Positions 11,288 through 29,559 of a stretch of DNA of 43,805 nt are shown here, piece after piece. Source of the DNA: Patescibacteria group bacterium (GTDB lineage Bacteria > Patescibacteriota > Minisyncoccia > Minisyncoccales > JANBVM01); contig JANBVM010000004.1 in NCBI GenBank assembly GCA_024239015.1, positions 1-43,805 of the forward strand, written 5' to 3'. Both the position numbers and the translations under genes were made by a program. Position 1 is the first letter of the stretch. Each line of letters begins with the position of its first letter. The notes below the pieces were generated by a model that was not told where the DNA came from, did no database searches, and saw only the letters and a program-made list of their open reading frames with translations.

Positions 11288-11290
11288 TTT

Positions 11291-12004
11291 ATGTTGTTAA
11301 GTATTATTATTCCAGCTCTAAATGAAGAGAGATATCTTCCTTTGCTGTTAAAAAGCATTAAGAAACAGAGCTTTAAAGATTACGAAATAATTATTGCTGA
11401 CGCAGGTTCCGAGGATAATACAGTTGAATTAGCTGTTAGTTTTGGATGCAAGGTTGCCAAAGGCGGCTTGCCAGCTAGAGGAAGAAATGAAGGCGCTAAA
11501 ATTGCTAGAGGGAAGCTATTTTTGTTTACTGATTCAGACAACATTTTTTTGTCCGCTAACTTTTTACAAAATCTCATTAAAGAATTCAAAAAAAGAGACT
11601 TAGATTTAGCTTATTTCCCTATTTATGCTGATGGTGGCAAAATCGATAGATTAGTTTACGGAGCTTTTAATTTATGGACAAAATTGACCCAAAGATTTCT
11701 AGCTTATTCTACTAATAGTGTTTTAATAAAAAGAGAAATTCACCAAAAAATAGGTGGGTTTGATGAAGAAGTAAAGATAGCTGAAGACCAAGAATATGTC
11801 TGGAGGGCTAAAAAATACGGGAAGTTTGGTTTTATTGAAACGGAACCCGTTTTAACTTCTTCCCGCAGATATGAAAGAGAGGGAAGGATTAAAACTTATT
11901 TAAAGTATATTCTAGCTGGAATCTGGATGATCTTTTTCGGTCCAGTAAAATCGAATCTATTCAATCTATTCAAGGAATATTGGAAAAGACCCATTGAAAA
12001 GTAA
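11291..12004 (+). CDS. Glycosyltransferase family 2
   Basis: SIIIPALNEE, DAGSED, RNEGA, FTDSD, GGFDE and AED motifs. Confidence 0.92.
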   Translation: MLLSIIIPALNEERYLPLLLKSIKKQSFKDYEIIIADAGSEDNTVELAVSFGCKVAKGGLPARGRNEGAKIARGKLFLFTDSDNIFLSANFLQNLIKEFKKRDLDLAYFPIYADGGKIDRLVYGAFNLWTKLTQRFLAYSTNSVLIKREIHQKIGGFDEEVKIAEDQEYVWRAKKYGKFGFIETEPVLTSSRRYEREGRIKTYLKYILAGIWMIFFGPVKSNLFNLFKEYWKRPIEK

Positions 12005-12029
12005 AAAAAACTGAGAGATAATACAACAT

Positions 12030-13355
12030 ATGATTGGCTATAATTTGCCAAAACTTAAATTGCCTAAATTGAAAAAATCAAAGGTAAGAATTCCTAAATT
12101 CTGGAGAGATAAATTATTTTGGCTTTTTACCCTAGTTATCTTCACCTCTTCTCTTTTTGGCTTTTTGGCCGGGACAATTTCTGGCAGTTTTTTCTATATT
12201 GAAATAGCTGGTTATTTAGAGAACCTGGGGCTTAGCACTGATCAATTAAGGTCTGGTAAAAGTGAGACTTATATTCCTCAAACTTCGCAAGAGCAGGCAG
12301 TTACCAGGGTGGTAAAAGAAAACTCAAAAGCAGTAGTGAGTATTATAATTAGCAAAGACCTTCCGATAATTGAAGAATATTATTATTCTCCCTTTGAGGA
12401 TTTCTTCGGAGATCCCCTTTTTGATATTAAAGTTCCGGGCTACCGTCAGAAAGGAGTGGAGAAAAAGGAGGTTGGCGGAGGCACAGGTTTTATCATATCT
12501 GAAGACGGAATGGTCCTCACCAATAAACACGTTGTCTTAGACAAAGAAGCTGATTATACTATTTTGACTTCAGATGGTAAGAGATTTTCAGCCCAGGTCT
12601 TAGCTAGAGACTTGGCTCAAGACATAGCCATATTGAAGATTAAACAAGAGATAATAAACGATGACCAGGGAGAGACAATTTTAAAGCCTTTTCCTAAGGT
12701 AAAACTAGGCGATTCCGATAAAATACAGATTGGGCAAACAGTAGTAGCTATTGGTAATGTTTTGGCAAGGTACCAAAATACTGTCTCTGTTGGAATCGTT
12801 TCTGGCTTGGGGAGAACCATTACAGCTTCAGGTGGAGGATTTTATGAAACCTTAGAGGATGTAATTCAGACAGATGCTGCCATAAACAGAGGAAATTCAG
12901 GCGGTCCCCTTTTAAATTTAAAAGGACAGGTAATAGGGATTAATACAGCAGTTGACATCCAAGGGCAAAATATTAGCTTTGCTATTCTTATTAACAAGGC
13001 CAAAAGAGGAATTGAGCAGGTTAAAACTTTAGGTAAAATAGTTTACCCATTTTTAGGAGTAAGATATGTTATCATTAACGAAAGCATTCAGAAAGATAAC
13101 AACTTGCCGGTAGATTATGGAGCCCTGATAGTGGGATCCCAGGGTCAAGCCGCTATTTTCCCAGACTCTGCCGCTGAAAAAGCAGGCCTGAAACAAGGAG
13201 ACATAATCTTGGAATTTAATGGAGAGAAGATCACCACTGAAAACAGCTTAGCAAAAATTATTATGAAATATGATCCAGGAGACGAAATTACTTTAAAGAT
13301 TCTAAGAGAGAAAGAAAAAACCATTAAAGTGGTTTTAGAGGGAAGGAGCGAATAG
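12030..13355 (+). CDS. htrA: HtrA/DegP-family serine protease with a PDZ domain
   Basis: TM anchor, triad motifs LTNKHVV, DIAILK and GNSGGPL, and a PDZ domain (SAAEKAGLKQGDII). Confidence 0.95.
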   Translation: MIGYNLPKLKLPKLKKSKVRIPKFWRDKLFWLFTLVIFTSSLFGFLAGTISGSFFYIEIAGYLENLGLSTDQLRSGKSETYIPQTSQEQAVTRVVKENSKAVVSIIISKDLPIIEEYYYSPFEDFFGDPLFDIKVPGYRQKGVEKKEVGGGTGFIISEDGMVLTNKHVVLDKEADYTILTSDGKRFSAQVLARDLAQDIAILKIKQEIINDDQGETILKPFPKVKLGDSDKIQIGQTVVAIGNVLARYQNTVSVGIVSGLGRTITASGGGFYETLEDVIQTDAAINRGNSGGPLLNLKGQVIGINTAVDIQGQNISFAILINKAKRGIEQVKTLGKIVYPFLGVRYVIINESIQKDNNLPVDYGALIVGSQGQAAIFPDSAAEKAGLKQGDIILEFNGEKITTENSLAKIIMKYDPGDEITLKILREKEKTIKVVLEGRSE

Positions 13356-13410
13356 TTCAAATTAACTTGATTTTTTAAGAATTTATTGTAAAATATCAAT
13401 AAACAATAAT

Positions 13411-16119
13411 ATGAATGGAGGTCAATTTACTCACAAGGCCCAAGAGGCCATAATCTCAGCTCAAAAACTATCCAGAGATAAAGAACAGCAGCAGATCGAT
13501 GCTCTGCATCTACTTTATGCTTTACTAAACCAGGAGGAAAGCATTGTTTTGAATTTGCTGGAAAGGATAGGAGCAGATATTGAAGGATTGAAGAAAAAAA
13601 CAAAATTAGCCTTGGGTAAAATCTCAACAATAGTCACTCCTCAGACGCTTGGCCAGTTTTATTTAACACAAGATATGGCTAAAGTCTTAGATAATGCCAA
13701 AAAGGAGGCATCCCGTATGGGGGACGAATATATCTCAGTAGAGCATCTTTTTTTGGGCCTTTTGAATACCGACACCAAGGTCAAGGAAATTTTAGATAAA
13801 TCCACCTTTTTAAAACCTCAAACTAAGCCAGGTTCTTTGGAGTTTGGGAAATTGGACTATCAAACACTTTTGAAAGAGCTGGCTAAAATCAGGGGCGGAC
13901 AGAGAATTACTGACCCAAAACCTGAGACAAAGTATCAAGTGATTGAAAAATATGCTAGGAACCTAACTTCTTTGGCTAGAAAAGGAAAACTAGACCCAGT
14001 TATTGGCAGAGAGAATGAGATAAGGAGATTAATGCAGATTCTTTCTCGAAGGACAAAGAACAACCCGGTTTTAATTGGTGAGGCAGGGGTGGGTAAAACA
14101 GCTGTTGCTGAAAGCTTAGCCCAGAGAATTGTTTCTGGCCAGGTCCCAGAAAGCTTGAAAGAAAAAGAAATCATTGCTTTAGATCTGGGGTCTTTGGTGG
14201 CCGGGACAAGATATAGGGGAGAATTTGAAGACAGGGTAAAAGCCCTTTTACGAGAGATTAATAGGGCCAAAGGTCAATATATACTATTCATTGATGAATT
14301 GCATACTCTAGTTGGAGCTGGAGCTGCTGAGGGCGCAATTGATGCCTCCAGCTTGCTTAAACCGGCCCTAGCCAGAGGAGAGTTAAGAGCAATTGGAGCT
14401 ACCACCTTAAAAGAATACCAAAAGTATATTGAGAGAGACCAGGCTTTAGAAAGAAGGTTCCAGCCAATTTATGTTACAGAACCCTCAACTGAGGACACCA
14501 TATCGATTTTGAGAGGAATTAAGGAGAGATACGAGCTACATCATGGAATAAAGATAAAAGATGCAGCTTTGATTACCTGTGCCCAGCTGGCAGCCCGCTA
14601 TATAACTGACAGATTCCTGCCCGACAAAGCAGTTGACTTAATGGATGAGTCAATGTCAGCCCTTCGCTTGGAAATTGAATCAGAGCCCAGTCAGCTGGAG
14701 GATCTAAGGAAAGAAATTCAAAAACTAAAAATTGAAAAAGAAGCAATTAAAAGAGAAAAAGGAACTAAAAGAAGACAGAGCGTTATTGCCAGGCAACTCT
14801 CAGACCTTAGAGAGAAAGAGAAAACAATTAGAACTAAATGGCAAACAGAGAAAGAATTGATTTTTAAGATAAAAGATTTTAAAAAAGAAATAGATAAATC
14901 TCGCTTTGAAGCTGAAAAGGGAATAGCTTCAGCTGATTTGCAAAAAGTTGCTGAAATAAAATACGGGAAAATACCAACTCTTTTAAAAAACTTAAAAGCT
15001 GCTGAAAAGAATCTGACCAGGGTACAGAAAAAACATTCAATCTTAAAAGGAGAGGTTTCTGAGGAAGATGTGGCCAAAGTAGTTTCTAAATGGACTGGTA
15101 TTCCTATTACCAGGTTGCTAGAAGAGGAGATCAAAAAATTAGAGAAAATGGAAAATATTATCTCAAAGAGGGTGATTGGTCAGAAAGAGGCAGTCTTGGC
15201 TATTTCTAGTGCTATCCGAAGGGCCAGGGCCGGTATCTCAGAAGAAAACAGGCCCCTGGGTTCTTTTATGTTCTTGGGTCCAACCGGAGTAGGAAAGACC
15301 GAAACTGCCAAGGCTTTATCTGAGTTTTTATTCAACGATGAAAATGCTTTAATCCGCCTTGATATGTCAGAGTATATGGAAAGGCATGCTGTTTCTAAAA
15401 TGATAGGATCTCCCCCGGGTTACGTTGGTTATGACGAAGGCGGTCAGTTGACTGAAAAGATTAGGAGAAGACCATACAGCGTGGTGTTATTGGATGAGAT
15501 TGAAAAAGCTCATCCTGAAGTATTTAATATCCTGCTTCAGATTTTGGAAGACGGTAGATTAACCGATGCCAAGGGAAGGACAGCTTCTTTTAAAAACACA
15601 ACCTTAATTATGACCTCAAATGTTGGTTCTGACATCATCGCCAGAGAAGCTTCTCTGGGTTTTATTGAAGGAGACAAAGAAAAAAGCCAGAAAGAGAGTT
15701 TGAGAGATAAAGTTATGACTGCCCTAAGAGACAGCTTTAGGCCTGAGTTTTTGAACAGGATTGATGAAATAATCATATTTAACTATCTCTCAAAACCAGA
15801 GATAAGGAAGATAGTTGATTTGGAGCTTCAGAAAGTGACTAAAAGACTTTTGCAAAAAGGGATCGAAATTAAGGTCGAAAAAAGAGTCAGAGAACTTATT
15901 GCTAAAAAAGGCTTTGACCCTAATTTGGGAGCTAGACCCCTAAGAAGGGTAATACAAAAACAACTTTTAGATCCTCTTTCTTTGAAGATTGTTTCGGGAG
16001 AATTAAGAGAAGGAGACAGGATCTTAGTTAATTTAGAAAACAAAAACATAGTTTTTCTTGACCCAAAAGACTTACTCAAACTTAAAAGTAGGGTCAAGAA
16101 ACAGAAAGTTTCTGTTTAG
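13411..16119 (+). CDS. clpB: ClpB-type Hsp100 AAA+ chaperone carrying an LGF loop
   Basis: Clp N-domain, Walker A motifs GEAGVGKT and [12 protein letters not shown] pore loop and a long coiled-coil M-domain with AEIKYG. Confidence 0.9.
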
Positions 16120-16121
16120 AC

Positions 16122-16841
16122 TTGAATATGAGAAAGGCTATCTTGAAGATTTTAGGCATTTTTATCTTAGGTATTTTTGGTGGAATTTTTGCTGACCAGA
16201 TTCTCTGGCCTTATCTTGTTGAGAGGCCTCTTTTTTATGAATACCGGTTAGAGAAAAATCCAGTCTATGTCACAGAGAAAGAAGAAATTACCATTCAAGA
16301 GAACGTTGCCTTGCAGAATGCTATTGAGAAAGTAGAAAAAGCAGTAATTGGAGTGAAAACAGAGACAAAAGAGAAAATCCTGCAGGGCTCTGGCTTAATC
16401 TTGACCTCAGACGGTTTGGTCGTAACTTTAGCCGATTTAGTCCCTCAAGGCGGTAGTTTTCTTTTTTTTATTGAAGGAGAGCCAGCTTCTTTTCAAGTTT
16501 TAAAGAGAGACTTAAAAGAGAATTTAGCCCTCATTAAGCTTGAAAAAGATAGTTTGTCAACTGTAGGATTTGCTAATATTGAAAGATTAAAACTGGGAGA
16601 AAGAGTATTTTTGGTTGGGACAGCCTTTGGAGTAAAAGATTTTAGAAGGACGGTTAACGAGGGGATTGTGAGCAATTTTAATGAGGACGAAATCCAGACA
16701 AGTATCTTGGAAGTAGGCACTCTTGCTGGCAGTCCTCTGTTTAATATTGAAGGAGAGCTTTTAGGATTAAGCACAGTTGATTATTGGGGAAGAGTCAGGG
16801 CTATCCCGGTCACCAAGGTGAGAACCTTTGCCGGCTTTTAA
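16122..16841 (+). CDS. Trypsin-like (S1C) protease homolog, apparently catalytically inactive
   Basis: GSGLILTSDG, LKLGERVF and GSPLFNIEGELLG motifs are present, but the His and Ser motifs are altered. Confidence 0.8.
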   Translation: MNMRKAILKILGIFILGIFGGIFADQILWPYLVERPLFYEYRLEKNPVYVTEKEEITIQENVALQNAIEKVEKAVIGVKTETKEKILQGSGLILTSDGLVVTLADLVPQGGSFLFFIEGEPASFQVLKRDLKENLALIKLEKDSLSTVGFANIERLKLGERVFLVGTAFGVKDFRRTVNEGIVSNFNEDEIQTSILEVGTLAGSPLFNIEGELLGLSTVDYWGRVRAIPVTKVRTFAGF

Positions 16842-16987
16842 AGATGAAACTGATTAATCAACAAAAAGGATTCCATATTTTTTACCTAGACTTTATATTT
16901 ACTCTAATTTTAATTGGGGGGATGCTCTACGTTCTATTCCAGAGAGACATTTCTTGTACCGGGAACTGTCAAGTTTTTATTAAGAAC

Positions 16988-17015
16988 TTGACGGCTTTTG
17001 TCAGTCAGTTAAGAT
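16988..17015 (+). promoter_or_regulatory. Sigma70-like promoter reading into the non-coding region
   Basis: TTGACG (16988-16993), 16 bp spacer, TAAGAT (17010-17015). Confidence 0.5.
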
Positions 17016-17020
17016 GAAAA

Positions 17021-17382
17021 TTAGAGGTTGCGGAGACAATATTTTTTACTCCACAATCTCTTTCCCTCCCCCAGTTAGTTCTTTTTATATATATAAGGTC
17101 TCTTTCTCGCACCTAATGGCGCGCCGCAGTCGATAACATTGGCGACGAGGAAAACCATGGACATCGAGAGCCATGTGTAAGGAGAAAAGAGCCTAATTTT
17201 AATAGGAGAGCAACTCATTTATTCTGCTCTCCCTGTTTTTTTATAAGAATAGAGAGTGAAAAAAGAGATAGGAAGTCTCCGTTTGCGTCCCAGGCAAGTT
17301 TCCATTTTGAGAGACCCTGTCTTTCTTCACACATCCCTAGTTCTTTAAAGCAAAAGAACCCTTACCAGGTTCTTATTTTTTT
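17021..17382 (+). ncRNA. Candidate structured non-coding RNA(s), family unknown
   Basis: Successive stems whose G-U pairs favour the + strand (17023-17061, 17096-17194, 17256-17330) and two terminator-like hairpins (17201-17242, 17354-17382). No credible ORF. Confidence 0.45.
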
Positions 17383-17395
17383 ACAAAATAATTTA

Positions 17396-17475
17396 GTTTT
17401 CCACAGGTTGTTTCATGGTTTTTCCATAAGTTAATCACTAGTTACACATTAGTTTTTCCGCAGCCTTATCTACAG
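17396..17475 (+). repeat. Phased array of degenerate DnaA-box-like units
   Basis: Seven units of 11-12 bp, including TTTTCCACA, TTTTCCATA, TTTTCCGCA and TTATCTACA, followed by an AT-rich tract. Confidence 0.6.
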
Positions 17476-17585
17476 TTTAGTTTACCGTATAGAACATATA
17501 ATTTTTTGATTTTTTTATGATTTATACTATAATTAAAATAGTAATCATAAGATATTAAGGCGAGCTATAATAAAAATTAAAAAAT

Positions 17586-17798
17586 ATGGATAAATCATTA
17601 AACTTTACTCAAATTACCAAAAAATACAGAGGTAAATGGATAGGTCTTACCGACGACGAGAAGAAGGTAATTTCTTCTGGCAAAACTGCTAAAGAAGCTT
17701 TAGAGAAGGCGAAAAAAAGAGGATACAAAAACCCCATTCTTTTTAAAGTTTCTGTTGTTCTTATGCCCTACGTAGGGAATATCCTACTTACCAAATAA
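17586..17798 (+). CDS. DUF5678-family small protein
   Basis: KYRGKWIGL...VISSGKTAKEALEKAKKRG...PILFKV pattern. Confidence 0.75.
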   Translation: MDKSLNFTQITKKYRGKWIGLTDDEKKVISSGKTAKEALEKAKKRGYKNPILFKVSVVLMPYVGNILLTK

Positions 17799-17825
17799 GT
17801 TAATGTGGTTCGGGTTCTATAACTT

Positions 17826-17877
17826 GAGCTCGGTAGCGAAAACAGGACTAAAAACCCTGTTTTTTGCTTGAGCTTTT
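17826..17877 (+). terminator. Long hairpin/terminator after the DUF5678 gene
   Basis: GAGCTCG..AGCGAAAACAGG pairs with CCTGTTTTTTGCT-TGAGCTT, then a T-run. Confidence 0.55.
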
Positions 17878-17941
17878 CAAAAAATGAGGCTATTCTGAAA
17901 GCATGAGAGATAATTTTTAAAAAATCATAAAACAAAATAAA

Positions 17942-18217
17942 ATGGGTTTAAATAAAATTCTTAAAATTCTAATAATTATAGCTCTTATTTGGGTTGCTTT
18001 TTCGATATCAGGCGCTAGGATATTAGTTTCAGAGGTAAAAGTTAAACCTGGGCAAGAATACTATGTTGAGGGATGGGGGAACTTGGGAGAGGCTAGTCAG
18101 ACCCAATTAGTTTGCAGATATTTTAATGGCAGAAAAATATTAACCAAAGTTTTATGGTATTCGTCAAACAACATTTTAGGTAGGGACTCTTGTCCATTTT
18201 TGTATAGTTCCCAATAA
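17942..18217 (+). CDS. Small secreted/membrane hypothetical protein with two Cys
   Basis: N-terminal hydrophobic helix; LVCRYFNG...SCPF. Confidence 0.7.
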   Translation: MGLNKILKILIIIALIWVAFSISGARILVSEVKVKPGQEYYVEGWGNLGEASQTQLVCRYFNGRKILTKVLWYSSNNILGRDSCPFLYSSQ

Positions 18218-18226
18218 AGGTTTTAG

Positions 18227-18523
18227 ATGAAAGAAAAAATTAAGAAGTATTTGATTCTCATAATGATTATTGGAGGATTGTTTGCCTTCAATACCTTAAC
18301 ATTTGCCCATCCTGGAAGAACAGCAGCTGATGGTTGTCATTATTGTAGAACCAATTGTAGCTCCTGGGGGGTTGCTTGGAATCAAAGACATTGTCATGGA
18401 GTAAGGGCATTACCTCAAGCCGAGGTTCCTAAAGAAGGTAGCGACGGTTCTTTTTGGGGGTGGATAATTGGATTAGGTGTTGTAGGTTATATCTATTATA
18501 TTTCCAAAAATAGAAATGAATAA
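18227..18523 (+). CDS. YHYH-like His/Cys-rich membrane-anchored protein
   Basis: Signal peptide, then HPGRTAADGCHYCRTNC...RHCH, then a C-terminal TM helix. Confidence 0.75.
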   Translation: MKEKIKKYLILIMIIGGLFAFNTLTFAHPGRTAADGCHYCRTNCSSWGVAWNQRHCHGVRALPQAEVPKEGSDGSFWGWIIGLGVVGYIYYISKNRNE

Positions 18524-18845
18524 AGAAGTTATAAGAAATAAAAATATTGCCTCTGGAATTGCCACTCTAATGCTTTTACTGGCCATGCCTTCAGGAATAT
18601 GGCCTTATGGTTATTATGTTCTCCTGCGTTGGGTGGTTGCTGGAGCAGCTGTCTTTATATGGTGGGTAGCCTCCGAATTAGAAAGAAAGAACTGGAGCTG
18701 GCTAATGATAGGGATTGCTATTCTTTTTAATCCTTTAATTCCTATTTATCTTGATAAAGGAGTTTGGGTGGTAATTGATTTTATTGTTGCTATTTTATTC
18801 TTAATAGCTATATTTAAATTAGGAGAGTCGGAGACTAATAAGTAA
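18516..18845 (+). CDS. DUF6804-family membrane protein
   Basis: WPYGYYVLLRWVV and ILFNPLIPIYL motifs; four TM helices. Confidence 0.78.
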   Translation: MNKEVIRNKNIASGIATLMLLLAMPSGIWPYGYYVLLRWVVAGAAVFIWWVASELERKNWSWLMIGIAILFNPLIPIYLDKGVWVVIDFIVAILFLIAIFKLGESETNK

Positions 18846-18863
18846 TTTAGTGGATATTGGGAA

Positions 18864-19235
18864 ATGCCAGAAACAAAAAAATCAATTCTATCTGTAGTAG
18901 CCCCAATCACCGCATTCATTATTGCCTATGCTCTAGCTAGATATTTGGGGTTGGTCTTTCTCCTTTTTTTATTAACAGGGTACGCTGGCCATTGGTTTGC
19001 TAATTGGTATTCAAAAAGAGAAAATCAAAGCTATAAATTAAAGAATGTCATTTGTTGGTCTAATGTAGTCACTTGGATCTCTCCAGTGGTAGGAGTCGGT
19101 ATGGGAATAATGGCATACGGATTCGGTAAAACCGAGAATAATAAAAAATATAGAAACTTAGGAATATTTGGTCTGACCTTATCAATTGTTAACGGACTAC
19201 TTGGAGTGTATCTTAGATATATTAGTTATATTTGA
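18864..19235 (+). CDS. Hypothetical membrane protein
   Basis: 123 aa with about four hydrophobic helices, co-oriented with its neighbours. Confidence 0.7.
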   Translation: MPETKKSILSVVAPITAFIIAYALARYLGLVFLLFLLTGYAGHWFANWYSKRENQSYKLKNVICWSNVVTWISPVVGVGMGIMAYGFGKTENNKKYRNLGIFGLTLSIVNGLLGVYLRYISYI

Positions 19236-19298
19236 TTGTTACTCAATGGCTATTAAACCCTAGTCTCAAAATTGAGAATTTAAAAATGAGAACAAAAA

Positions 19299-19320
19299 GC
19301 CCAGCTGCTGGGCATTTTTT
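19299..19320 (+). terminator. Rho-independent terminator
   Basis: GCCCAG-ctg-CTGGGC followed by a T-run and preceded by an A-run. Confidence 0.7.
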
Positions 19321-19397
19321 ACAAAAAAGTAAACGTGATATGCTAAATAAAGAGGTGAGCGAGGGTTGCTAAAACAGTACAACCCTCGCCGCTTCGG

Positions 19398-19559
19398 TTA
19401 GCTTCTACAGTTTTTTGAATCACGCTTAGCTAAACACTCATTACACCATTCTCCACTACTGGGTCTTGAATATCTTTCCCCGTAGTTAGAAATTGGCCAG
19501 TTTGAGCAGTTTCTGCAGAAGTGCCAGGTATCGTGCCCCTTTCTTTTTCTGTAAGTCAT
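19398..19559 (-). CDS. Unannotated 53-aa Cys/His (zinc-finger-like) protein
   Basis: Manual translation: MTYRKRKGHDTWHFCRNCSNWPISNYGERYSRPSSGEWCNECLAKRDSKNCRS*, with HxCxxC and CxxC motifs. Upstream promoter TTGACA (19701-19696), 17 bp, TAAGGT. Confidence 0.78.
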   Translation of the reverse strand: MTYRKRKGHDTWHFCRNCSNWPISNYGERYSRPSSGEWCNECLAKRDSKNCRS

Positions 19560-19672
19560 CTAGGTAAAGTTAATTTTAGGTTAATTATTTATTTCTTCAA
19601 GCAAAGACCTTGAGAGCCTTTTTAAAAGGTGCTTGGTTTTTGTTTTTATTAAAAGAACTCCCTTTCTCAATC

Positions 19673-19752
19673 ACCTTAGGTTATTTTTCAACTGGTGTCA
19701 AGTTTAAGGACTTACTAGGTTTCCTTGTATTATTTTTAGAACATGCTATAGT
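19673..19752. promoter_or_regulatory. Divergent promoter pair
   Basis: Minus strand: TTGACA-17-TAAGGT. Plus strand: extended -10 TGcTATAGT (19744-19752), 8 nt before the repressor ATG. Confidence 0.55.
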
Positions 19753-19760
19753 GTGATTAT

Positions 19761-20429
19761 ATGATGCATTTAATCCAAGAAGAGCTTTTGAAGCTTTCTA
19801 AAAAAAAGAATCTTGCCAAGCTTAGCCTTAGAGAAATGGCTAAGTTAATTGGGATGCCTAACCAATCGCCACAGAAGATTAAACATCACCTTCTCCAGCT
19901 TCAAAAGAAGGGATTTTTAAAGATTGATAGAATAAAGGGAGTGATGAAACGTACTTCTTCTACCCCTGATTGGGCTAAAGGGTTGCTTAATAAATCCGCA
20001 CGGCTTTTTTCAATTCCAGTTGTTGGAACAGCAAACTGTGGTCCACCAACAATCTTTGCAGAAGAAAATTTTCAGGGATTTTTACGTGTATCTAATAAAT
20101 TGATTAAACGTTCAAGACCAGATGGTCTTTATGCCATTAAGGCTGATGGCTCATCCATGAATCGAGCAAAAATAGAAGGAATATCTCTTGAAGATGGTGA
20201 TTTTGCTATAGTTGACAAAGAAGATAAAAATGTAGTAAATCAAGATATTGTGCTTGTAATCATTGATGATGTGGCGACCATTAAACGATTTATAGATGAT
20301 AGGCAAAATGGCCAAATTGTTCTTAAGGCAGACTCTTCTTTTGATTATGATCCTATTTATCTTCACGAAGATGATGACTTTAGTGTCTGCGGGAAAATTA
20401 TTCAGATTATTAAAAAGCCGAAGAATTGA
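19761..20429 (+). CDS. LexA/CI-like repressor with an S24 autopeptidase domain
   Basis: N-terminal HTH (LSLREMAKLIG...HLLQLQKKG), IPVVGTANCG cleavage site, catalytic Ser (GSSM) and Lys (ATIKRF). Confidence 0.9.
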   Translation: MMHLIQEELLKLSKKKNLAKLSLREMAKLIGMPNQSPQKIKHHLLQLQKKGFLKIDRIKGVMKRTSSTPDWAKGLLNKSARLFSIPVVGTANCGPPTIFAEENFQGFLRVSNKLIKRSRPDGLYAIKADGSSMNRAKIEGISLEDGDFAIVDKEDKNVVNQDIVLVIIDDVATIKRFIDDRQNGQIVLKADSSFDYDPIYLHEDDDFSVCGKIIQIIKKPKN

Positions 20430-20488
20430 TTAATAATAAAGTAAGTTTTAGACTAAGGGGTAAATTAATTTCGTAACAAACAACTCAT

Positions 20489-21676
20489 ATGAATAAAAAA
20501 ATAAAAAAACAATCTAAAAAAAATCAGATAGAAACTATTAAAAACAGTAAGAGAACTTATATAAGTCAATCTGATATTCCTAGATACCAGCTTTCACAAG
20601 CATTAAGGGTTGCAAATGCAATTGCTGATAATTATGGAAAAAAGCCCACCAGACCGCTTCGGGTTGCAGAAGCAATGGAAGTCTTACCAGCTTCGAGTAA
20701 TTTCAGAATGTTATGTGGAGCTTCCATCGCTTACGGTCTTACAGAGGGTGGGTACAACGCGAATTTAATATCATTAACGCCATTAGCAAAAAGGATTGTT
20801 GCTCCGACTGTCGATGGAGACGATTTATCCGCAAAACAAGAAGCAATACTAAAACCTAAAATTATTAGAGAATTTTTGACAAAATATGACACCTCTTCTC
20901 TTCCTGCGGAAAAAATTGGTTATAATGTTCTTGAAGAGATGGGGGTTCCAACTGTAAAAACTAAAGAAACCTTTGACCTCATTTTAAAATCCGCTAAAGA
21001 AGTTGGTTTTATTCGAGAGATGAAAGGTAAAAATTTTGTTGATTTGAGCGTTACCTCGGGAACAAAAGAAAATAATAATGGTGAAACAGTATCGCCAGAT
21101 GAATCAGAAAACATTACAGATGAAATAGGGGATCAAAATAATTTAGACTTGGCTCCATCTGATGACCAGACAAAAGAGACCATGAAACAAACTGGGGATG
21201 TGAAAAAACGACTCCAACGAGTATTTATAACCCACGGGAAAAACCAAGCTTTTATAAGTCCTATAAAAAAGTTCTTAATATTTGGTGGCTTTGAACCTGT
21301 GGTGGCAGTAGAAAGGCAGACCACTTCTCAACCTGTACCTGAAAAAATAATAGGTGAAATGCAAAGTTGTGGTGCAGCTATAATTCATATTGAAGCAGAG
21401 CAAAAATTGATCAGTACAAAGGGGAAGGAACAAGTAATTTTGAACCCAAATGTTTTAGTTGAGATTGGTGCCGCAATGGCTCTTTATGGAAAAAGATTTG
21501 TACTTTTAGTAAAAGAGGGGGTTGATTTGCCTTCAAACTTGCAAGGATTATATCAGGTTCGATATTCTAATAGTTCATTGAGCAGTGGAGAGACTATTAA
21601 ACTTTTGGAAGCAATTAATGATATTAAAAACCATTCGTTACCAGGATTTTTAAAGGGAAATCAAGATTCAATTTAA
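20489..21676 (+). CDS. TIR-like nucleotide-binding domain protein (Cap12/PycTIR-type TIR) with an N-terminal helical or winged-helix region
   Basis: C-terminal RVFITHG, NPNVLVEIG and LPSNLQG motifs, joined by an acidic linker to a roughly 190-aa N-terminal region. Confidence 0.85.
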   Translation: MNKKIKKQSKKNQIETIKNSKRTYISQSDIPRYQLSQALRVANAIADNYGKKPTRPLRVAEAMEVLPASSNFRMLCGASIAYGLTEGGYNANLISLTPLAKRIVAPTVDGDDLSAKQEAILKPKIIREFLTKYDTSSLPAEKIGYNVLEEMGVPTVKTKETFDLILKSAKEVGFIREMKGKNFVDLSVTSGTKENNNGETVSPDESENITDEIGDQNNLDLAPSDDQTKETMKQTGDVKKRLQRVFITHGKNQAFISPIKKFLIFGGFEPVVAVERQTTSQPVPEKIIGEMQSCGAAIIHIEAEQKLISTKGKEQVILNPNVLVEIGAAMALYGKRFVLLVKEGVDLPSNLQGLYQVRYSNSSLSSGETIKLLEAINDIKNHSLPGFLKGNQDSI

Positions 21677-21906
21677 TAAGATTTCCTCTAATTTTTATCT
21701 AATCAATGATTCTAAATACGTTGTTCAATGGGTAAAGCTAATTCCAAACTCCTATGAAACCTTTTAATTTCCAATAGCTTCTCCCTCATCATTACCATAT
21801 AGTCTTTATTCTCTAAAATTATAATAAGCTTTGAATTAGGACGGTGTCCTTAATAATAGTAAATGAATTTTGACATTTTTCTTAGAGAAGAATACAATGA
21901 AAATAT

Positions 21907-22125
21907 ATGAGCAAAATTGTTGCCATCCCAAAACAGTTATCAAAAAAGGGAGAATTAGTTATAATACCCCGTTCTGATTACGAAGAGCTTTTACGCTTGA
22001 AAAAGGTCATTCCTTTAGTGAAACCGACTCTATCTGAAAAAAAAGCAATTCAATCTGGAAGAAGAGAAATTAAAAGAAAAAAGTATTTGACTCTTAAACA
22101 ACTAAAAGATGAGCTGGAGGATTAG
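21907..22125 (+). CDS. Putative type II antitoxin
   Basis: 72 aa, ELVIIPRSDYEEL...GRREIK..YLTL, overlapping the downstream toxin start. Confidence 0.7.
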   Translation: MSKIVAIPKQLSKKGELVIIPRSDYEELLRLKKVIPLVKPTLSEKKAIQSGRREIKRKKYLTLKQLKDELED

Positions 22126-22378
22126 AGTTGCAAAAAGAGTTTCAAAGGAGGTAAAACGAATCCCTAAGAAAGACGCAAAGCGTCTTTTATCTGTCTTGGA
22201 GGAGCTAGCAGAAAATCCTTATCAAGGAGATATTGAGAAAATCAAAGATGAAGATAATGTGTGGCGACGGAGGGTAGGTAGCTACAGAGTCCTTTACGAA
22301 GTGGTACCGAAAAGAAAGTTTTTAAACGTTTTCCAAATCAGCAGAAGAACTACCACCACTTATCATAAAAGAGCGTGA
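22109..22378 (+). CDS. RelE/ParE-family toxin
   Basis: 89 aa basic protein with ENP, WRRRVGSYRVLY and C-terminal RR...Y motifs. Confidence 0.9.
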   Translation: MSWRIRVAKRVSKEVKRIPKKDAKRLLSVLEELAENPYQGDIEKIKDEDNVWRRRVGSYRVLYEVVPKRKFLNVFQISRRTTTTYHKRA

Positions 22379-22511
22379 GTAAATCAAGAAATCATTCAAC
22401 CTCATACTTTTTCCTACAGATAAAATAACATTAATCCTTTGACGAAAAGCGAATTATAGTTTATAAATAAGACGGCAATTTAACAAATTTTAATAAGAAG
22501 GAGGTTATGAA

Positions 22512-22661
22512 TTGTCGTTTGATAAAGGTGAAAGAGTTAATAAGTACTACAGAAGAGTAGCTAACAAAGATAAACACGAAGAAAAAAAGATTGAAAGAGG
22601 AGAAAACAGAAAAATGATCCCACCTTCTAAAAAAATGGGAAGAGGTAAAACCAATAGTTAA
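22512..22661 (+). CDS. Unannotated 49-aa basic peptide
   Basis: SD GGAGG 7 nt before a TTG; MSFDKGERVNKYYRRVANKDKHEEKKIERGENRKMIPPSKKMGRGKTNS*. Promoter TTGACG-17-TATAAA upstream, terminator GGTGC-acta-GCACC downstream. Confidence 0.55.
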   Translation: MSFDKGERVNKYYRRVANKDKHEEKKIERGENRKMIPPSKKMGRGKTNS

Positions 22662-22690
22662 AAAAAACGGTGCACTAGCACCATTTTTTA
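22662..22690. terminator. Bidirectional terminator
   Basis: A-run, GGTGC-acta-GCACC, T-run, between convergent ORFs. Confidence 0.6.
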
Positions 22691-22714
22691 TTTCCTTAAT
22701 TTTTTAAAAAGGAA

Positions 22715-22945
22715 TTACTGAGACTCTGATTCTTTGTGCATTCCGTGCTCTTTGTGCATTCCGTGTCCTTTTTGACCCCAGCTGCAACACCAACAACGAC
22801 TACCACGCTTTTTAAAGAAAAACGATAAACCAAGAAGAATCAGTAAAATTGGCCAAAGCATTCCCCATGCTCCAGCGGCTATAAAGCCCATATTTTGGAG
22901 AAGGAAAATTAAACCAATTATTATAAGTAAAATTGCGAAATACAT
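22715..22945 (-). CDS. DUF5668/LiaI-LiaF-like small membrane protein with Cys/His tail
   Basis: LIIIGLIFLLQNMG...LWPILLILLG, then CWCC and a repeated HGMHKE. Extended -10 TGcTATAAT upstream. Confidence 0.78.
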   Translation of the reverse strand: MYFAILLIIIGLIFLLQNMGFIAAGAWGMLWPILLILLGLSFFFKKRGSRCWCCSWGQKGHGMHKEHGMHKESESQ

Positions 22946-23084
22946 TTTATTATTGTGTAGTTTAAAGTTAGCTACGACCTTTATTGAATTATAGCAAATA
23001 TTCTTTAAGTAATAAAAGAGGTAAGTTATTAACTTTTGTTATGAGCAAAGCCGTCGAGAAATTTTTTGACCGCAAGCCTTAATT

Positions 23085-23705
23085 TTGGTATATTTTTTTA
23101 ACAACTGGATTATGGATAAAAACTATTTACTTCAGGTCACAAATGAAATCTATCGCATAACTTTACTTTTTCCCAAAAAGGAGCCCTTAAGATATAGGAT
23201 GAGGGAGGTGGCTGACGATGTTTTATCTGGATTTATTTCTATTACGATTGATGCTGATCCAAAGATTAAATCCGCAAGGATCAACGACTTAGAAAGGAAT
23301 GCCGAAATTATCAATAGTTTTTTAGAACTTGCAAAAACCCAAAATTGGGTTAAGTCTCCTGACATATTGAGACTACAAGAAGAGTATAGTAGAATAGGGG
23401 AAGAGTTAGAAAAATTTAGAACAGAAAAAGAGACTGAAGAATTACCCAAAGAAACAGCAGATATTGCACTTCCGCTGGTTTCTGTGTCAAAAGATGATAA
23501 GGTTGATATACCTGACCGTCAAGAAAAGATTTTAGAGATTTTAAAAGAAAAAGGAAGAGCTCAGGTTTGGGAGATAAAGGGTCTCCTTCCAGAGGTAAGC
23601 AAAAGAACTTTGAGGAGAGATTTTAATAGTTTAGTCAAAGAGGGCCTGGTACAAAGGATGGGCGAAAGAAATGAGACTTTCTATCAGATTATTGATAGGT
23701 CATAA
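23085..23705 (+). CDS. Four-helix-bundle plus DeoR-type winged HTH protein (likely start ATG at 23112)
   Basis: N-terminal YRITLLFPKKEPLR helix bundle; C-terminal RQEKIL...VSKRTLRRD...L HTH. Confidence 0.8.
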   Translation: MVYFFNNWIMDKNYLLQVTNEIYRITLLFPKKEPLRYRMREVADDVLSGFISITIDADPKIKSARINDLERNAEIINSFLELAKTQNWVKSPDILRLQEEYSRIGEELEKFRTEKETEELPKETADIALPLVSVSKDDKVDIPDRQEKILEILKEKGRAQVWEIKGLLPEVSKRTLRRDFNSLVKEGLVQRMGERNETFYQIIDRS

Positions 23706-23789
23706 ATAGGACAGCGGTAATTTATTTAGTAGGACGCGTTATGTCCTACTATTTCATATCTCTTCTCTAGAACAAAAATAGGGAATTTT

Positions 23790-24293
23790 ATGGAAAGAAA
23801 AAAAAGATTATTTAGTAAAATATACGACAAATACATAGATAAAATATATGGTTTTACCTTCTTTAAGGTAAACTCTCAAGAAATAGCTGAGGATTTGACT
23901 TCTGAGGCTTTCTCAAGAACATGGGCTGTTTTTAGAAAAAAAGACAAAGAGATTGATAATATTCAAGCATTTTTGTATAAGACCGCCAAAAATTTAGTAA
24001 TTGATCACTATCGGCAAAAAGGGAAAACTCAGGTAGTATCGACTGAAGATATCTCTATTGCCGATCCAAGACATAATTTGGAAGAAGAAGCTATATTAAA
24101 TTCAGACGTTGATAATATAAAAGAAATCTTGTATACCTTAAAAGAAGACTATCAGAACGTTATTATCTGGTATTATCTGGATGACCTATCAATTTCTGAG
24201 ATATCTAATGTATTAGGTAGGACAAAAGAGACTACTCGTGTCCTACTACACAGAGCTCTGAATGCATTAAAGGTTAAAATTAAAGAGAATTGA
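23790..24293 (+). CDS. ECF-type RNA polymerase sigma factor
   Basis: Region 2 (AEDLTSEAF, FLYKTAKNLVIDHYR) and region 4 (LSISEIS...RVLLHRAL) only. Confidence 0.93.
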   Translation: MERKKRLFSKIYDKYIDKIYGFTFFKVNSQEIAEDLTSEAFSRTWAVFRKKDKEIDNIQAFLYKTAKNLVIDHYRQKGKTQVVSTEDISIADPRHNLEEEAILNSDVDNIKEILYTLKEDYQNVIIWYYLDDLSISEISNVLGRTKETTRVLLHRALNALKVKIKEN

Positions 24294-24339
24294 TTCTTTT
24301 TAGCGTTAGTTAATTTGGTAGGTTGATAAACTTCAGAAG

Positions 24340-24365
24340 TGTAACAAAAATGACCTTTTTACGTC
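24340..24365 (+). promoter_or_regulatory. ECF-sigma-type promoter
   Basis: TGTAAC, 16 bp spacer, CGTC, matching the AAC...CGT ECF pattern. Confidence 0.6.
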
Positions 24366-24405
24366 ATAAATCTAGGTAAGGGTAAAAAAGCCTTTATTTC
24401 GTTTT

Positions 24406-25110
24406 TTGACTACATTTTTTGTGACAACATCTCAATTAATTAGGAAAATTAAAGAATTGAAGGGGGTAAAGCCCAATCAAGACTGGGTCTTACTTACTAA
24501 AAAACAGATATTGGGAGAAGAAGTAACCCCTGAATTGTTCCCATTCCTGAGGCCAGCTTATGCTGGTTTGTTTGCCTTGTTTCTACTATTGGGTCTCTTC
24601 GAATTCTCTCAGGGAGCCCTGCCTGGTGAATCTCTGTATTATTTCAAGAAGATTGTTGAAAGGGGCCAGATAATTATTTCGTCTGAAGAGGCAAGGCCCA
24701 GTTTCAATCTTGAGTTAGCCAATAAGAGATTAGAAGAATTGAATGAGATTGCCCTGGGTAATGAAGCAAAGAAATTAGCGCCAGCCATGCATGAATTTCA
24801 GATCAAAGTTGCAGAAGCTGCAGAGAACCTGACAAAAGTAAAGAAAATTAATAAAGAGATTGTTTTTCAAACCCAAAAATTAGAGGAAAATAAAGAGAAG
24901 GTGGAAAAAGTTTTGGCAGCAAAAATTGATACCGATGACTACGATACTGCTTTGTCCCAGCTAGTTGAAAGTCAGATTTTAGATTTAGAACAAAGAACGT
25001 TAAGCGAAGAAGATCAAGAAATTTTAGAAGCTGTAAGACAAGATTTTGAATCAGGCAATTATTCTGAAGCTTTGATAGGAATTTTGGATCTAAGCCAGAA
25101 CGATCTTTAG
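24406..25110 (+). CDS. DUF5667-domain membrane protein, possible anti-sigma factor
   Basis: Single TM helix followed by ALPGESLYYFKK and KRLEEL motifs; directly downstream of the ECF sigma. Confidence 0.75.
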   Translation: MTTFFVTTSQLIRKIKELKGVKPNQDWVLLTKKQILGEEVTPELFPFLRPAYAGLFALFLLLGLFEFSQGALPGESLYYFKKIVERGQIIISSEEARPSFNLELANKRLEELNEIALGNEAKKLAPAMHEFQIKVAEAAENLTKVKKINKEIVFQTQKLEENKEKVEKVLAAKIDTDDYDTALSQLVESQILDLEQRTLSEEDQEILEAVRQDFESGNYSEALIGILDLSQNDL

Positions 25111-25174
25111 GAGGTAATTTTATCATTAAAAGTTTTCCACAAGTATTTTTTTGACAATTTGATACAATATAAAA

Positions 25175-25300
25175 TTGGAAGTCGCAGTTCGTGACTGATA
25201 GCTAGGGTCGCGAACAATTCCTTTCTTAGATAGAACTCAATTGGTTGAGATTCTAACTTTGTGTTCTACTAAAAAGGAATAAAGTGGTCGACGCGACAAA
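25175..25300 (+). promoter_or_regulatory. Structured 5' leader of the surface-protein gene
   Basis: GTCGC/GCGAC closes two stems: GTTCGTGACT/GGTCGCGAAC and ATTCCTTT..TAGAAC/GTTCTA..AAAGGAAT. Extended -10 TGaTACAAT at 25160-25168. Confidence 0.55.
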
Positions 25301-25337
25301 AGTAATAATAAATTAATCACTTAAAAGAATAAAAAGA

Positions 25338-28300
25338 ATGACTATAAAAATGTCTATAACGAAGAAAATTATTTCGATTGCTACTGTTGTTGGTATGTTG
25401 GCCCCCATTGCCCCTGCTTTGGCTATAACAGCAGCTGATCTTCAGGTACAAATTGATGCTTTATTAGCTCAATTGTCCTCATTACAGGCTCAGTTGACTA
25501 CACTTGAAGGGGGAGAAACAACTCCAACTGTTAGTGGTTGTACAATTACTTCTTTTGATAGAAGCCTAAAAGTAGGCTCGTCAGGAGAAGATGTTAAATG
25601 TCTACAGATTATCTTGAATTCAGCCGCCGATACCCAGGTAGCTGCAACAGGCGTAGGATCTTCTGGTAGTGAAACTACCTACTTTGGTCCTTTAACCCAA
25701 GCTGCAGCAATTAAATTCCAGGAAAAATACGCCAGTGAAGTTTTAGCTTCTTGGGGATTAACTACTGGAACTGGTTTCATTGGCTCAACAAGTAGAACTA
25801 AGCTGAATAGTCTCTTGGGCGCAGGAGTTCCTGGAACACCTGGAACACCTGGCGAAGTCGGCACTACAGCCGCTGTTTCTTTAGCTGCTGATACTGCAGT
25901 CGCAGGTGCTGTGGCTAAAAACTCTCAAGATGTACCTTTCACCAAGATTAGATTTTCAGCTGGTGCCACTGCTTATACCGTTACCCAGATTGTTGTTGCT
26001 CGAGGCGGAGTTTCAGCCGATGCTGATATTTCATCTATAAAGTTATATGATGGAACAGCCCAGCTAGGTTCAACTCAGGCCTTAAACACTAACACCCACA
26101 AAGCAACCTTTGGAAGCCTTTCATGGGAAATTCCTTCCTACACCGTTAAATACCTAAGTATTCTTGGAAGCATTGCTGCTTCACCTACAGTTGGAGATGT
26201 TATCCAGTTAGGAATTTCTGCTGCTTCAGACATTAGTGCAACGGTAAGTCCTTCAGGAACTTTCCCAATCATGGGAAACTTGAAGACAGTTGCTGGAATT
26301 TCAGTTGGTCGACTTGATGTTGACAAACAGGCTACTCCAGCTACCACCACTGTTCTATCTGGAGCTACTGACCAAGAAGTTGCTTGTTGGAAGTTTACGG
26401 CTGACAACACCGAAGGCTTCGACGTTAATTCAATTAAGGTTTCCCATGTTGGTTCTGCTGCTAGAGCTGACCTAAGCAATCTAGTTCTTAAAGTTTCAGG
26501 AACTCAGATTGGTTCAACCATGCTCAGTTTAGATGCTTCTAACCAGGTAATGTTTGACCTATCTGCTTCTCCTTTGAACATTAGAACTGGATCAGCTAAG
26601 ACAGTTTGTTCTTACACTGATGTTGCTTCTGGAATTTCGACCTCAAGGACAGCAATCTTTGAGCTTACCCAAGCTACAAATATAGTGGCTTACGGTGCTA
26701 ATTCCGGAGGAATAGTGACAGTTACTATTACCTCTGCTACTTTTGTTAAGCAGACCGGTAATACCATGACCATTGGTCAGGGTACTTTAACCGTTGCTTT
26801 GGATGCTGCTCAAAATCCTGCCGCTCAGAATTATGTTAAGGGAACCGCAAACAGATTAATTACTGCTGTTAAGTTCTCAACTGGTGCAAGAGAGGGAGTT
26901 AGGATGGTAAAACTTGTATTCACCCTAGGTGGAACAGGTTCTGCTACCGATATCTCTAATGTTACCCTTTGGGACGGAACCACTCAGATTGCAGGTCCTG
27001 CCTCAGTTATTGGTACTAGCGTCACCTTTGGTGCTAACACTATTGGTTACGATGTAACTGGACTATTTGATGTGCTGAAATCAGCTAATACTACTGTTTT
27101 AGTTAAAGCTGATGTTCCAACCGGGGCTGATTCTACAAAGACAGTAAGCCTGAGCTTATCTGCAGCATCTGATATTTCTGCCGATGGCCTAGGATCACAA
27201 TACGACTTGCCTTCTTCAGCTATTACTGGAACAGCTACGGGTAACGCCCACTCTGTGACGGCTAATGGTACTTTATCAGTGGCTTTGGCTGCTGATACTC
27301 CACCTGCTCAGACTTATGTGAAGGGATCAACCGCAAAATCATTCACTAAGATTAACTTTACTGCAGGTTCTGGAGAGGACATGACTGTGACCTCTATTAC
27401 AGTTAGATGTTATGTAGGATCTGGTACTGGATCCACTTGTGCTTCAGGAGACGTCACCAACGTTAAGTTGTTGAAGTCAGACGGATCACAGTTTGGATCA
27501 GTTGTTACCAGCCCAACAGCTTCTGCTGGATTTAGCGGTACTTTCACAGTTACAGCTGCTCAGACCGGATCCATTACCGTAGTAGCTGATATTCCTACCA
27601 CTGCCGCCGCTGCCTCTGTTCACTTTGACCTTCCGGGAGCTGGAACAGTTGCCAGTGATATTACTTCAACTGGTGCTTCTTCTGCAGCTGATATTACAGA
27701 AACAGGTTCTGCCACTGGTAAATTAGTAACTATTGGTTCAGGATCTTTGACTATTGCTGCAGCCGCAGTCCCAGCCGATCAGACCCAGATTATTGGAGCC
27801 ACTCAAATTCCTATTGTTGGTTTAGTACTAACAGCTGGAACAGGTGAGGATGTTAGGATAACTAAGTTAAAGTTCACCAGGAGTGTTCTTACTTCTAGTG
27901 AAGGTTCTTCAACTGACTTGTCTAACATTGCAATTTACGATGGATCTACCAGACTAACTGCTAATAAGCCTTGGGATGGCACTGACACCGAAGTTACATT
28001 TACAGCCTCTGATTTCTTGAACTTATTGGGGATTGATATTGTCAAAGGACAGCAAAAGACGGTTACCGTCAATGCTGATGTTCCTTCTACCGCAGTCAAT
28101 CTACACGTAGTTGCTATAGGTATAGCCACCTCTACTGATCCTGGTAGTACTACTACTAGTGACGTTACGATTGTTGGGCTTTCTTCAAATACAAGTCCAG
28201 CTCCTACCGTAACAAAGGCCAATACGGCTTTGGAGGGAGCTAACTACAGCTCAAATGGTGATGGTAATGCTTATTATCTGACTCTTAACACTAAGGGTAC

Positions 28301-29453: not shown

Positions 29454-29508
29454 TAGGTTCGGACCGAAATCTTGAACTGAAATCTATTTATGCCTTTCCT
29501 TGTGAGGC

Positions 29509-29544
29509 AACCAAAAGCCGCTCCATTGGAGCGGCTTTTGGGTT
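29509..29544. terminator. Strong bidirectional terminator
   Basis: CCAAAAGCCGCTCCA-t-TGGAGCGGCTTTTGG. Confidence 0.88.
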
Positions 29545-29559
29545 CACTTAATATATTTT

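Follow-up and report, generated by a model that had tools for sequence, protein, structure and literature searches.

The stretch of DNA analysed here, a contig of 43,805 nucleotides from a Patescibacteria group bacterium of the Minisyncoccales (GenBank assembly GCA_024239015.1, contig JANBVM010000004.1; "the window" below denotes this whole stretch), carries at 19398-21676 three adjacent genes that an original prediction, made from the letters alone, had taken for a single damage-responsive defence switch. On the forward strand, the list of open reading frames (ORFs), Pfam and alignment define a 222-residue repressor that contains a helix-turn-helix (HTH) and an S24 peptidase domain (19761-20429), which is followed after an intergenic gap of 59 bp by a 395-residue stand-alone TIR protein (20489-21676), for which Pfam and a structural model distinguish a folded N-terminal domain, a disordered linker and a TIR domain of the Cap12/Pycsar type. 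Divergent from these, on the reverse strand, is a gene for a His/Cys microprotein of 53 residues, whose family is widespread and unnamed (19398-19559; ORF list and homologue alignment). The three frames and the gap lie where the prediction had placed them. As described in the following, the three genes are not a conserved system, and the TIR gene occupies a position behind the repressor that is filled differently from locus to locus.

The repressor, its downstream slot and its upstream site

Every one of the 25 related loci from the order has a gene on the same strand that begins no more than 80 nt past the repressor stop. Judged by Pfam, this cargo comprises parts of restriction-modification (R-M) systems at 8 loci (a ninth was recognized by eye), PemK at 7 and, at one locus each, a RelE-type pair (with two likely remnants besides), Shedu, a nucleotidyltransferase together with Cap15, AGS-C and NYN, while the remainder consists of DUF2188 and of an unnamed gene that precedes a helicase. 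The host genome itself contains a second repressor paralogue, 41% identical to the first, which heads a region extending from a KAP-NTPase to SMODS beside recombinase, terminase-like and ParB-methylase genes. A second sample, taken across the phylum, contributed 13 strong matches with PemK as cargo in 3 and SMODS in 2, several of them adjoining recombinase or ParB/terminase-like genes, as well as 8 weaker matches, two of which are lexA-recA operons and one of which (L301) was not parsed. The TIR gene of the window fills the slot that these related repressors load with varied defence and toxin genes, and because the repressor marks such a slot, unknown genes found behind it become defence candidates by virtue of position. 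The small soluble proteins of the left arm vary among loci as well (HNH, DUF1508, DUF2188, DUF3892 and unnamed proteins), and in L229 the microprotein stands just before DUF1508 and DUF7508 genes.

The PemK-linked repressors (L206, L208-L210, L212, L213, L215, L286, L288 and L290) constitute one clade, with a support of 98 in the Shimodaira-Hasegawa-like approximate likelihood ratio test (SH-aLRT). They carry an extra acidic tail of approximately 30 residues after the S24 domain, and their stop codon overlaps or abuts the start of pemK; the tail looks like that of an antitoxin fused to a self-cleaving repressor.

The window repressor matches PF00717 (S24; E 8e-20) and, weakly, the LexA DNA-binding domain. 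The Cys-Gly site and the Ser/Lys dyad, which had been described as intact, are present as C93-G94 and as S132 and K175; among 25 aligned relatives the glycine, serine and lysine are invariant (25/25), and position 93 is cysteine in 21 and alanine in 4. Judged from its sequence, the protein is likely a self-cleaving repressor of the LexA/CI type, with RecA as the predicted trigger. Start positions within the family indicate that the second methionine (19764) may be the true start. The family is patchy in its distribution, with members in 24 out of 401 genomes from the order, and its profile was recovered in 21 of 401 genomes of the phylum; below E 1e-30 the profile gathered 259 clusters (at 50% identity), among which some ordinary LexA proteins are to be expected. 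Viral relatives were scarce, with full-length close matches at only 2 among 20 loci and no match in a single-protein viral scan with the repressor.

A quick version of the repressor tree, with SH-aLRT support, groups the recA-linked proteins apart from the cargo-heading repressors with moderate support (89 and 93), and places the repressor of locus L123, at 63% identity, as the closest relative (SH-aLRT 99). Alignment A4 omits L058, whose slice contains a stop, and alignment A3 omits L204, L220 and L223. The possibility that the repressor is simply the sole, housekeeping LexA of its genome, which the original prediction had itself named as damaging, is ruled out by the two copies, by a score of 77.5 bits against the TIGR00498 LexA equivalog (cut-off 110.95), by the patchy spread, by the separate branch of the recA-linked proteins and by the recA gene, which is present in the host genome and lacks the TGTCAA/TTGAC motif discussed below in the 200 nt before it (recA is the only repair gene checked individually, and the bin is 92.5% complete). 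One member of the recA-linked branch, L297, heads a small membrane-like gene and a ThsB-type TIR on a ParB-carrying element, and the cargo slot is therefore not confined to a single branch of repressors.

With respect to the region between the divergent genes, the back-to-back promoters of the original prediction are legible by eye. A candidate extended -10 element, TGn-TATAGT (19744-19752, + strand), lies 8 nt ahead of the ATG of the repressor and would give rise to a leaderless or near-leaderless transcript, and a candidate leftward promoter, TTGACA-17-TAAGGT (19673-19701, - strand), combines a perfect -35 box with a weak -10 box. Neither is listed by a consensus promoter scan, the yield of which was at the level of chance (10 sites vs 9.0 +/- 3.0), and a leaderless promoter was rejected as a trait of the repressor family, since the leaderless-type -10 occurs at 7 of 28 family loci vs 29 of 170 control genes. 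The hexamer TGTCAA is found no more than 110 nt upstream of the repressor start at 24 of 28 loci, vs 20 of 317 control genes and, in a second control from contigs matched for guanine-plus-cytosine (GC) content, 13 of 139 genes; it recurs at 8 of the 13 strong matches of the second sample, and is kept even at loci without a divergent gene. The sequence doubles as a reversed -35 box, so that the motif may mark either an operator or a promoter.

Comparison of the window with L123 reveals one clear common intergenic block (19696-19714), a 19-bp stretch that includes both the family-wide TGTCAA and a dyad, TAAG-N2-CTTA, and that occurs only once in the host genome. We consider this block, retained in the closest relative, a candidate operator that the repressor likely binds. 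The position of this block, over the leftward TTGACA and about 50 bp ahead of the repressor start, would suit repression of the left arm, with induction of the microprotein upon damage, better than control of the repressor's own promoter.

The TIR protein, the microprotein and their independence

The microprotein had been cast as a trigger or inhibitor of the TIR protein, with co-occurrence of the three genes in other genomes as the proposed check. No such co-occurrence was found. Among 83 TIR loci (80 from genomes and 3 from viral contigs, median 13 kb), none contained the microprotein and none a repressor of this family; among 109 microprotein loci (80 metagenomic, 25 viral and 4 from the same order, some on the same contigs and many of them short), none contained the TIR gene. 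Within the order, no match to the TIR profile was obtained in the 400 other genomes at E 1e-40, and the four genomes that encode the microprotein have neither repressor nor TIR within 1.5 kb of it. The microprotein faces an S24 repressor at 2 of the 109 other loci (L123 and L099). In L123 it is divergent and stands behind another small gene, the 19-bp block and a serine recombinase are both present, and no TIR start was found in the 180 bases after the repressor. A fixed pairing of TIR and microprotein is unsupported, because in neither direction (0/83 and 0/109) does a locus hold the partner gene, and L123 provides an example of repressor and microprotein without the TIR; the claim that the one acts upon the other is likewise not supported. 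Directly past the repressor of L123 (L123:1-180), reading by eye revealed a fragment that we take to be comM/YifB-like, which suggests the insertion site of the L123 element.

The TIR protein belongs to a family with at least 4485 homologues at 45-57% identity, which come from many phyla of bacteria and, in two records, from archaea. PF10137 spans residues 244-360 and is present in 44 of 44 aligned members. E325 (codon at 21461-21463), the glutamate whose retention the original prediction had noted, is invariant in all 44 and aligns to the conserved glutamate of PycTIR (8jsj, a profile match); the conserved glutamate of PF10137 is catalytic, and E325 is predicted to be so here. Fold searches returned TIR-STING as the best match (structures 9lmq and 7un8; Z 12.1, root-mean-square deviation (rmsd) 3.2, 130 aligned), in a tie with the nucleotide N-glycosidase MilB (Z 12.0), the rows returned by such searches all being taken by the TIR part. 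The score against NF050171 was 14.3 bits, far below its cut-off of 450. No STING domain or domain binding cyclic nucleotide monophosphates (cNMP) was found by Pfam in any of the 44 family members, no cyclase adjoins the TIR gene in the window block, and five nucleotidyltransferase queries, of limited reach, matched none of the 83 loci. The absence of cyclase, STING and cNMP-binding domains holds at the locus and in the TIR family. In the genome as a whole PF00211 was not found, but an SMODS cyclase lies on another contig (C3), behind the repressor's paralogue.

That the TIR protein stands alone is borne out by its neighbourhoods, in which nothing recurs (no neighbour family in more than 5 of 80 loci). 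PADLOC matched the protein to its PDC-S35 models, which carry no stated cut-off, over residues ~157-374 only (E 4e-15, best 54 bits). From 260 listed neighbours, 81 were picked from L017-L064 for Pfam and 108 from L065-L096 for PADLOC. The former were mostly housekeeping proteins, besides which a few matched Mrr, AbiTii, TIR_2, Fic or transposase; the latter placed defence neighbours at 6 of 32 TIR loci (a Thoeris-like pair, R-M, AbiV with Argonaute, AbiTii, GmrSD-like and DRT4), a count that excludes generic kinase, ATPase, sigma and helicase matches and has no control set. The only other adjacency of S24 and TIR, at 1 of 83 TIR loci, is in a Saccharibacteria record (L018:3775-5829, + strand), where a Schlafen-group-3 helicase-S24 fusion follows a MazG-like gene directly upstream of the TIR-family gene.

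The model of the TIR protein contains a confident N-terminal domain (residues 23-188; 20555-21052, + strand) and a disordered linker (residues 189-236) ahead of the TIR domain. The N-terminal domain is modelled as two helix-helix-helix plus beta-hairpin units, and is predicted to be a tandem winged helix. The corresponding domain of a homologue gave a weak model match to AAA_assoc_C (template modelling score, TM, 0.49), one relative matches PF09821 at E 2e-4, and Atlas leads to DUF5343 (PF17278) reached 0.84 and 0.85, below 0.9; the domain has no Pfam or PHROGs match and nothing useful among PDB sequences. Where the original prediction had suggested a possibly DNA-binding region fused to the TIR, a folded domain is modelled that may be read as a tandem winged helix; its profile, compared with that of DUF5343, gave no significant match. 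The domain is a separate module, because it is also found without the TIR. In the group of such TIR-less proteins (P0317-P0361, e.g. P0359), 37 of the 77 members that have a tail of at least 55 residues terminate in a short conserved motif similar to the tail of DUF5343 (58%, E 1e-4), and viral contigs yielded a single partial match to this family. The two DUF5343 genes that were encountered adjoin Swt1-like HEPN genes.

The microprotein, described beforehand as an unannotated HxCxxC/CxxC protein, is indeed a real and conserved family, with 21 protein matches at 58-74% identity and at least 431 confirmed stretches. H13, C18, C42 and C51 are kept in 22 of 22 aligned sequences and C15 in 21, but position 39 may be Cys or Asp, and since it is Asp in 12 of 22 the CxxC is not a motif of the family. 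Its model (predicted local distance difference test score, pLDDT, 84) placed N-Ada (PF02805) in the top row of two fold searches, as a weak match (Z 3.0, rmsd 3.0, 48 aligned; E 7); PF02805 was not found in the 21 genomes searched. The microprotein had no match in Pfam, in NCBIfam, in PHROG or among PDB sequences, and none in annotated phages. It is most likely a small metal-binding, nucleic-acid-facing protein that would be expressed when repression of the left arm is lifted. Another small CxxC protein, without Pfam or PHROG family, lies convergent to the microprotein within 500 nt at 16 of 80 loci (e.g. L139:504-785 and L172:1736-2011, both on the - strand), a position taken in the window by a membrane-protein gene, and IS1-like or IS1595 transposases are frequent at microprotein loci.

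Chromosomal surroundings

The three genes reside in a variable hotspot (16842-23084) between a trypsin-like protease gene, which ends at 16841, and a DeoR-HTH gene, which starts at 23085. In five relatives with both flanks visible the contents differ, and none of the 12 genes of the window that were tested is present. The hotspot further holds an antitoxin-like gene with a ParE/RelE toxin (21907-22378, + strand), which has a strong promoter match of its own (21870-21898) and is separate from the TIR unit. Directly past the microprotein stop is a GC-rich hairpin with a 10-bp stem (19359-19389), read by eye and not listed by the scan, which may be a terminator. A hairpin that the scan does list as terminator-like (19299-19313), with a score on either strand, separates the microprotein gene from the convergent membrane gene. 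Rfam gave no match in the window. A public contig is identical to the window over 18291-20672, and may derive from the source sample. The host genome is a 1.03-Mb bin (92.5% complete, 5.6% contamination; relatives 0.3-1.5 Mb), with a bimodal contig GC of ~0.28 and 0.355, contigs C3, C4 and the recA contig C10 falling in the higher class. On contig C3, at ~10600-30100, is an integrative element with a recombinase, terminase-like and ParB-methylase genes, the paralogous repressor, a KAP-NTPase and an SMODS operon, the left edge of which bears a three-gene block that by eye resembles an ABC-three-component system.

Interpretation and relation to known systems

In phage lambda, the self-cleaving S24 repressor cI sits between divergent promoters, is translated from a near-leaderless message and has a defence gene directly behind it in the order cI-rexA-rexB. 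The analogy to lambda drawn in the original prediction fits the arrangement of repressor and cargo found here, and a comparable logic, to which we assign a probability of about 0.58, may operate at this locus: a steady message for repressor and TIR, a left arm released by damage, and a TIR protein that acts alone on a phage cue. The repressor would derive from small recombinase-carrying integrative elements, the window copy having been stranded in a chromosomal hotspot. When bound, it would block the leftward promoter, while its own transcript would provide a steady supply of repressor and TIR, much as lambda PRM does for cI-rexAB. DNA damage would generate RecA filaments, these would promote cleavage at C93-G94, and the microprotein arm would be turned on; TIR output may also rise after damage if autorepression is lost. 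The N-terminal winged-helix-like domain would sense a phage-linked cue, most likely DNA, and cluster the TIRs, which would then cleave NAD+ via E325 and stall the infected cell. The TIR protein is accordingly predicted to be a lone NAD+-destroying anti-phage protein. The microprotein, one of several interchangeable small proteins that the left arm may carry, would have no control over the TIR and is likely carried along as a passenger by the repressor's second promoter.

A number of observations weigh against this reading. All of the biochemistry that it invokes (binding, cleavage, expression, NADase and anti-phage activity) is inferred, the observed part comprising the anatomy, the exchangeable slot, the conservation of the upstream motif and the independence of the three genes. 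TGTCAA, as a reversed -35 hexamer, may mark a promoter instead of an operator, and the distance that separates it from TTGAC ranges between 4 and 45 nt. In the second sample, Pfam-named defence or toxin cargo accompanies only 5 of the 13 strong matches, and L285, L291, L294, L295 and L306 have no tightly coupled gene on the same strand; nor are the repressor relatives independent of one another, the PemK loci forming one clade. The window block has no recombinase, tRNA or attachment (att) repeat and no telling repeats, because of which the repressor-TIR unit looks stranded. The winged-helix reading draws upon secondary structure and weak matches, and hhalign of the N-terminal domain against DUF5343, with a five-row profile, gave a non-significant 0.2%. 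No specific defence neighbour lies within two genes at 26 of 32 TIR loci (a count without control), and the TIR gene was not found in plasmids and has only 3 viral loci. Of the 32 TIR candidates that were cloned in E. coli, no more than 12 conferred defence (PMC11350192).

An alternative that we regard as unlikely is negative autoregulation in the manner of LexA, in which the repressor-TIR transcript would be low and induced by damage, making the TIR a damage-primed abortive effector like CapH/CapP-CBASS and leaving the microprotein a passenger still. Many relatives have TGTCAA and TTGAC bracketing or overlapping the repressor's own -35, also where there is no divergent gene, and a toxic cargo such as PemK fits with tight repression. 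At this locus, however, the conserved block covers the leftward -35 and is removed from the repressor start by ~50 bp in the upstream direction, and R-M, the commonest class of cargo, should be on before infection. A precedent for damage-dependent release exists in CapP/CapH (PMC10904395). More improbable than this is that the TIR is a DNA-binding stress or nucleotide enzyme without a role in defence, which landed here by chance in a decayed pile of hotspot insertions. In its favour, defence neighbours are missing at most TIR loci, the fold ties with MilB (Z 12.0) and the hotspot content differs in every relative; against it speak PF10137 in 44 of 44 members, the similarity to PADLOC models and PycTIR, a patchy spread across phyla at ~50% identity, and intact frames with a tight coupling like that of other cargo.

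The fixed three-gene switch of the original prediction, in which the microprotein would trigger or inhibit the TIR, is very improbable: the adjacency of the genes in the host genome and the 2 of 109 other loci in which a microprotein faces an S24 repressor are set against the reciprocal searches, which found no partner at 83 and 109 loci, against the order, in which at E 1e-40 the TIR profile drew no match from the 400 other genomes, while the four microprotein genomes lack repressor and TIR within 1.5 kb, and against L123, where repressor and microprotein occur without TIR. The lambda-like reading may also be extended to a joint proposal, doubtful as a whole, in which a widespread one-gene immunity would use a tandem winged helix to read phage DNA and assemble a Cap12-type NADase without a cyclic-nucleotide messenger, and in which RecA-cleavable repressors would serve as a universal plug-in defence switch in bacteria with tiny genomes, one branch having acquired an antitoxin-like tail for PemK. 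The stand-alone TIR family, with thousands of members in many bacterial phyla and some archaea, keeps the catalytic domain of Cap12/Pycsar and has an unnamed domain where the messenger sensor would be; if it defends, it would show a messenger-gated NADase wired straight to a sensor. The repressor family provides a handle on the regulation of immunity in ultra-small bacteria.

With regard to known systems, we found no published account of the TIR family, DUF5343 or the repressor family in a partial coverage of the literature, and the TIR family may be listed in the supplements to PMC11350192 and to the bioRxiv TIR survey; that recent survey set stand-alone TIRs aside (10.64898/2025.12.03.692087). 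The TIR protein resembles Cap12 (TIR-STING) and PycTIR in its PF10137 domain with conserved glutamate, in its best fold matches (9lmq and 7un8) and in its profile match (8jsj), but has neither a STING or cNMP-binding domain nor a linked cyclase, and its C-terminal TIR is preceded by an unnamed folded domain with a long disordered linker. The PADLOC candidate PDC-S35, with models of 231-278 positions, matches the linker and TIR only and not the N-terminal domain. TIR-V, TIR-VI as well as TIR-IX of E. coli are described as short, TIR-only single-protein defences that need their active site (PMC11350192); compared by description only, they share the one-gene format and lack the additional N-terminal domain.

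Among regulators, CapH/CapP releases a CBASS regulator by proteolysis after DNA damage, and is alike in placing a dedicated regulator beside a defence operon with proteolytic release (predicted here), but it employs a separate metallopeptidase, whereas the window repressor is a single S24 protein predicted to cleave itself with the aid of RecA (PMC10904395). Housekeeping LexA and HdiR, a non-canonical SOS repressor, share the HTH and S24 domains, the scissile bond and the Ser-Lys dyad (PMC8565304). The window repressor departs from housekeeping LexA in falling below the TIGR00498 cut-off, in its presence in 24 of 401 genomes, in its two copies, in the lack of a site at recA and in the placement of lexA-recA operons in the other branch. 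Like that of lambda cI-rexA-rexB, finally, the window repressor is a predicted self-cleaving S24 protein that lies between candidate divergent promoters, would have a near-leaderless message and has a defence-type gene directly behind it; unlike in lambda, its HTH is a LexA-like winged one, its cargo is a swappable TIR, no lytic genes are present, and its family is a cellular and patchy one.

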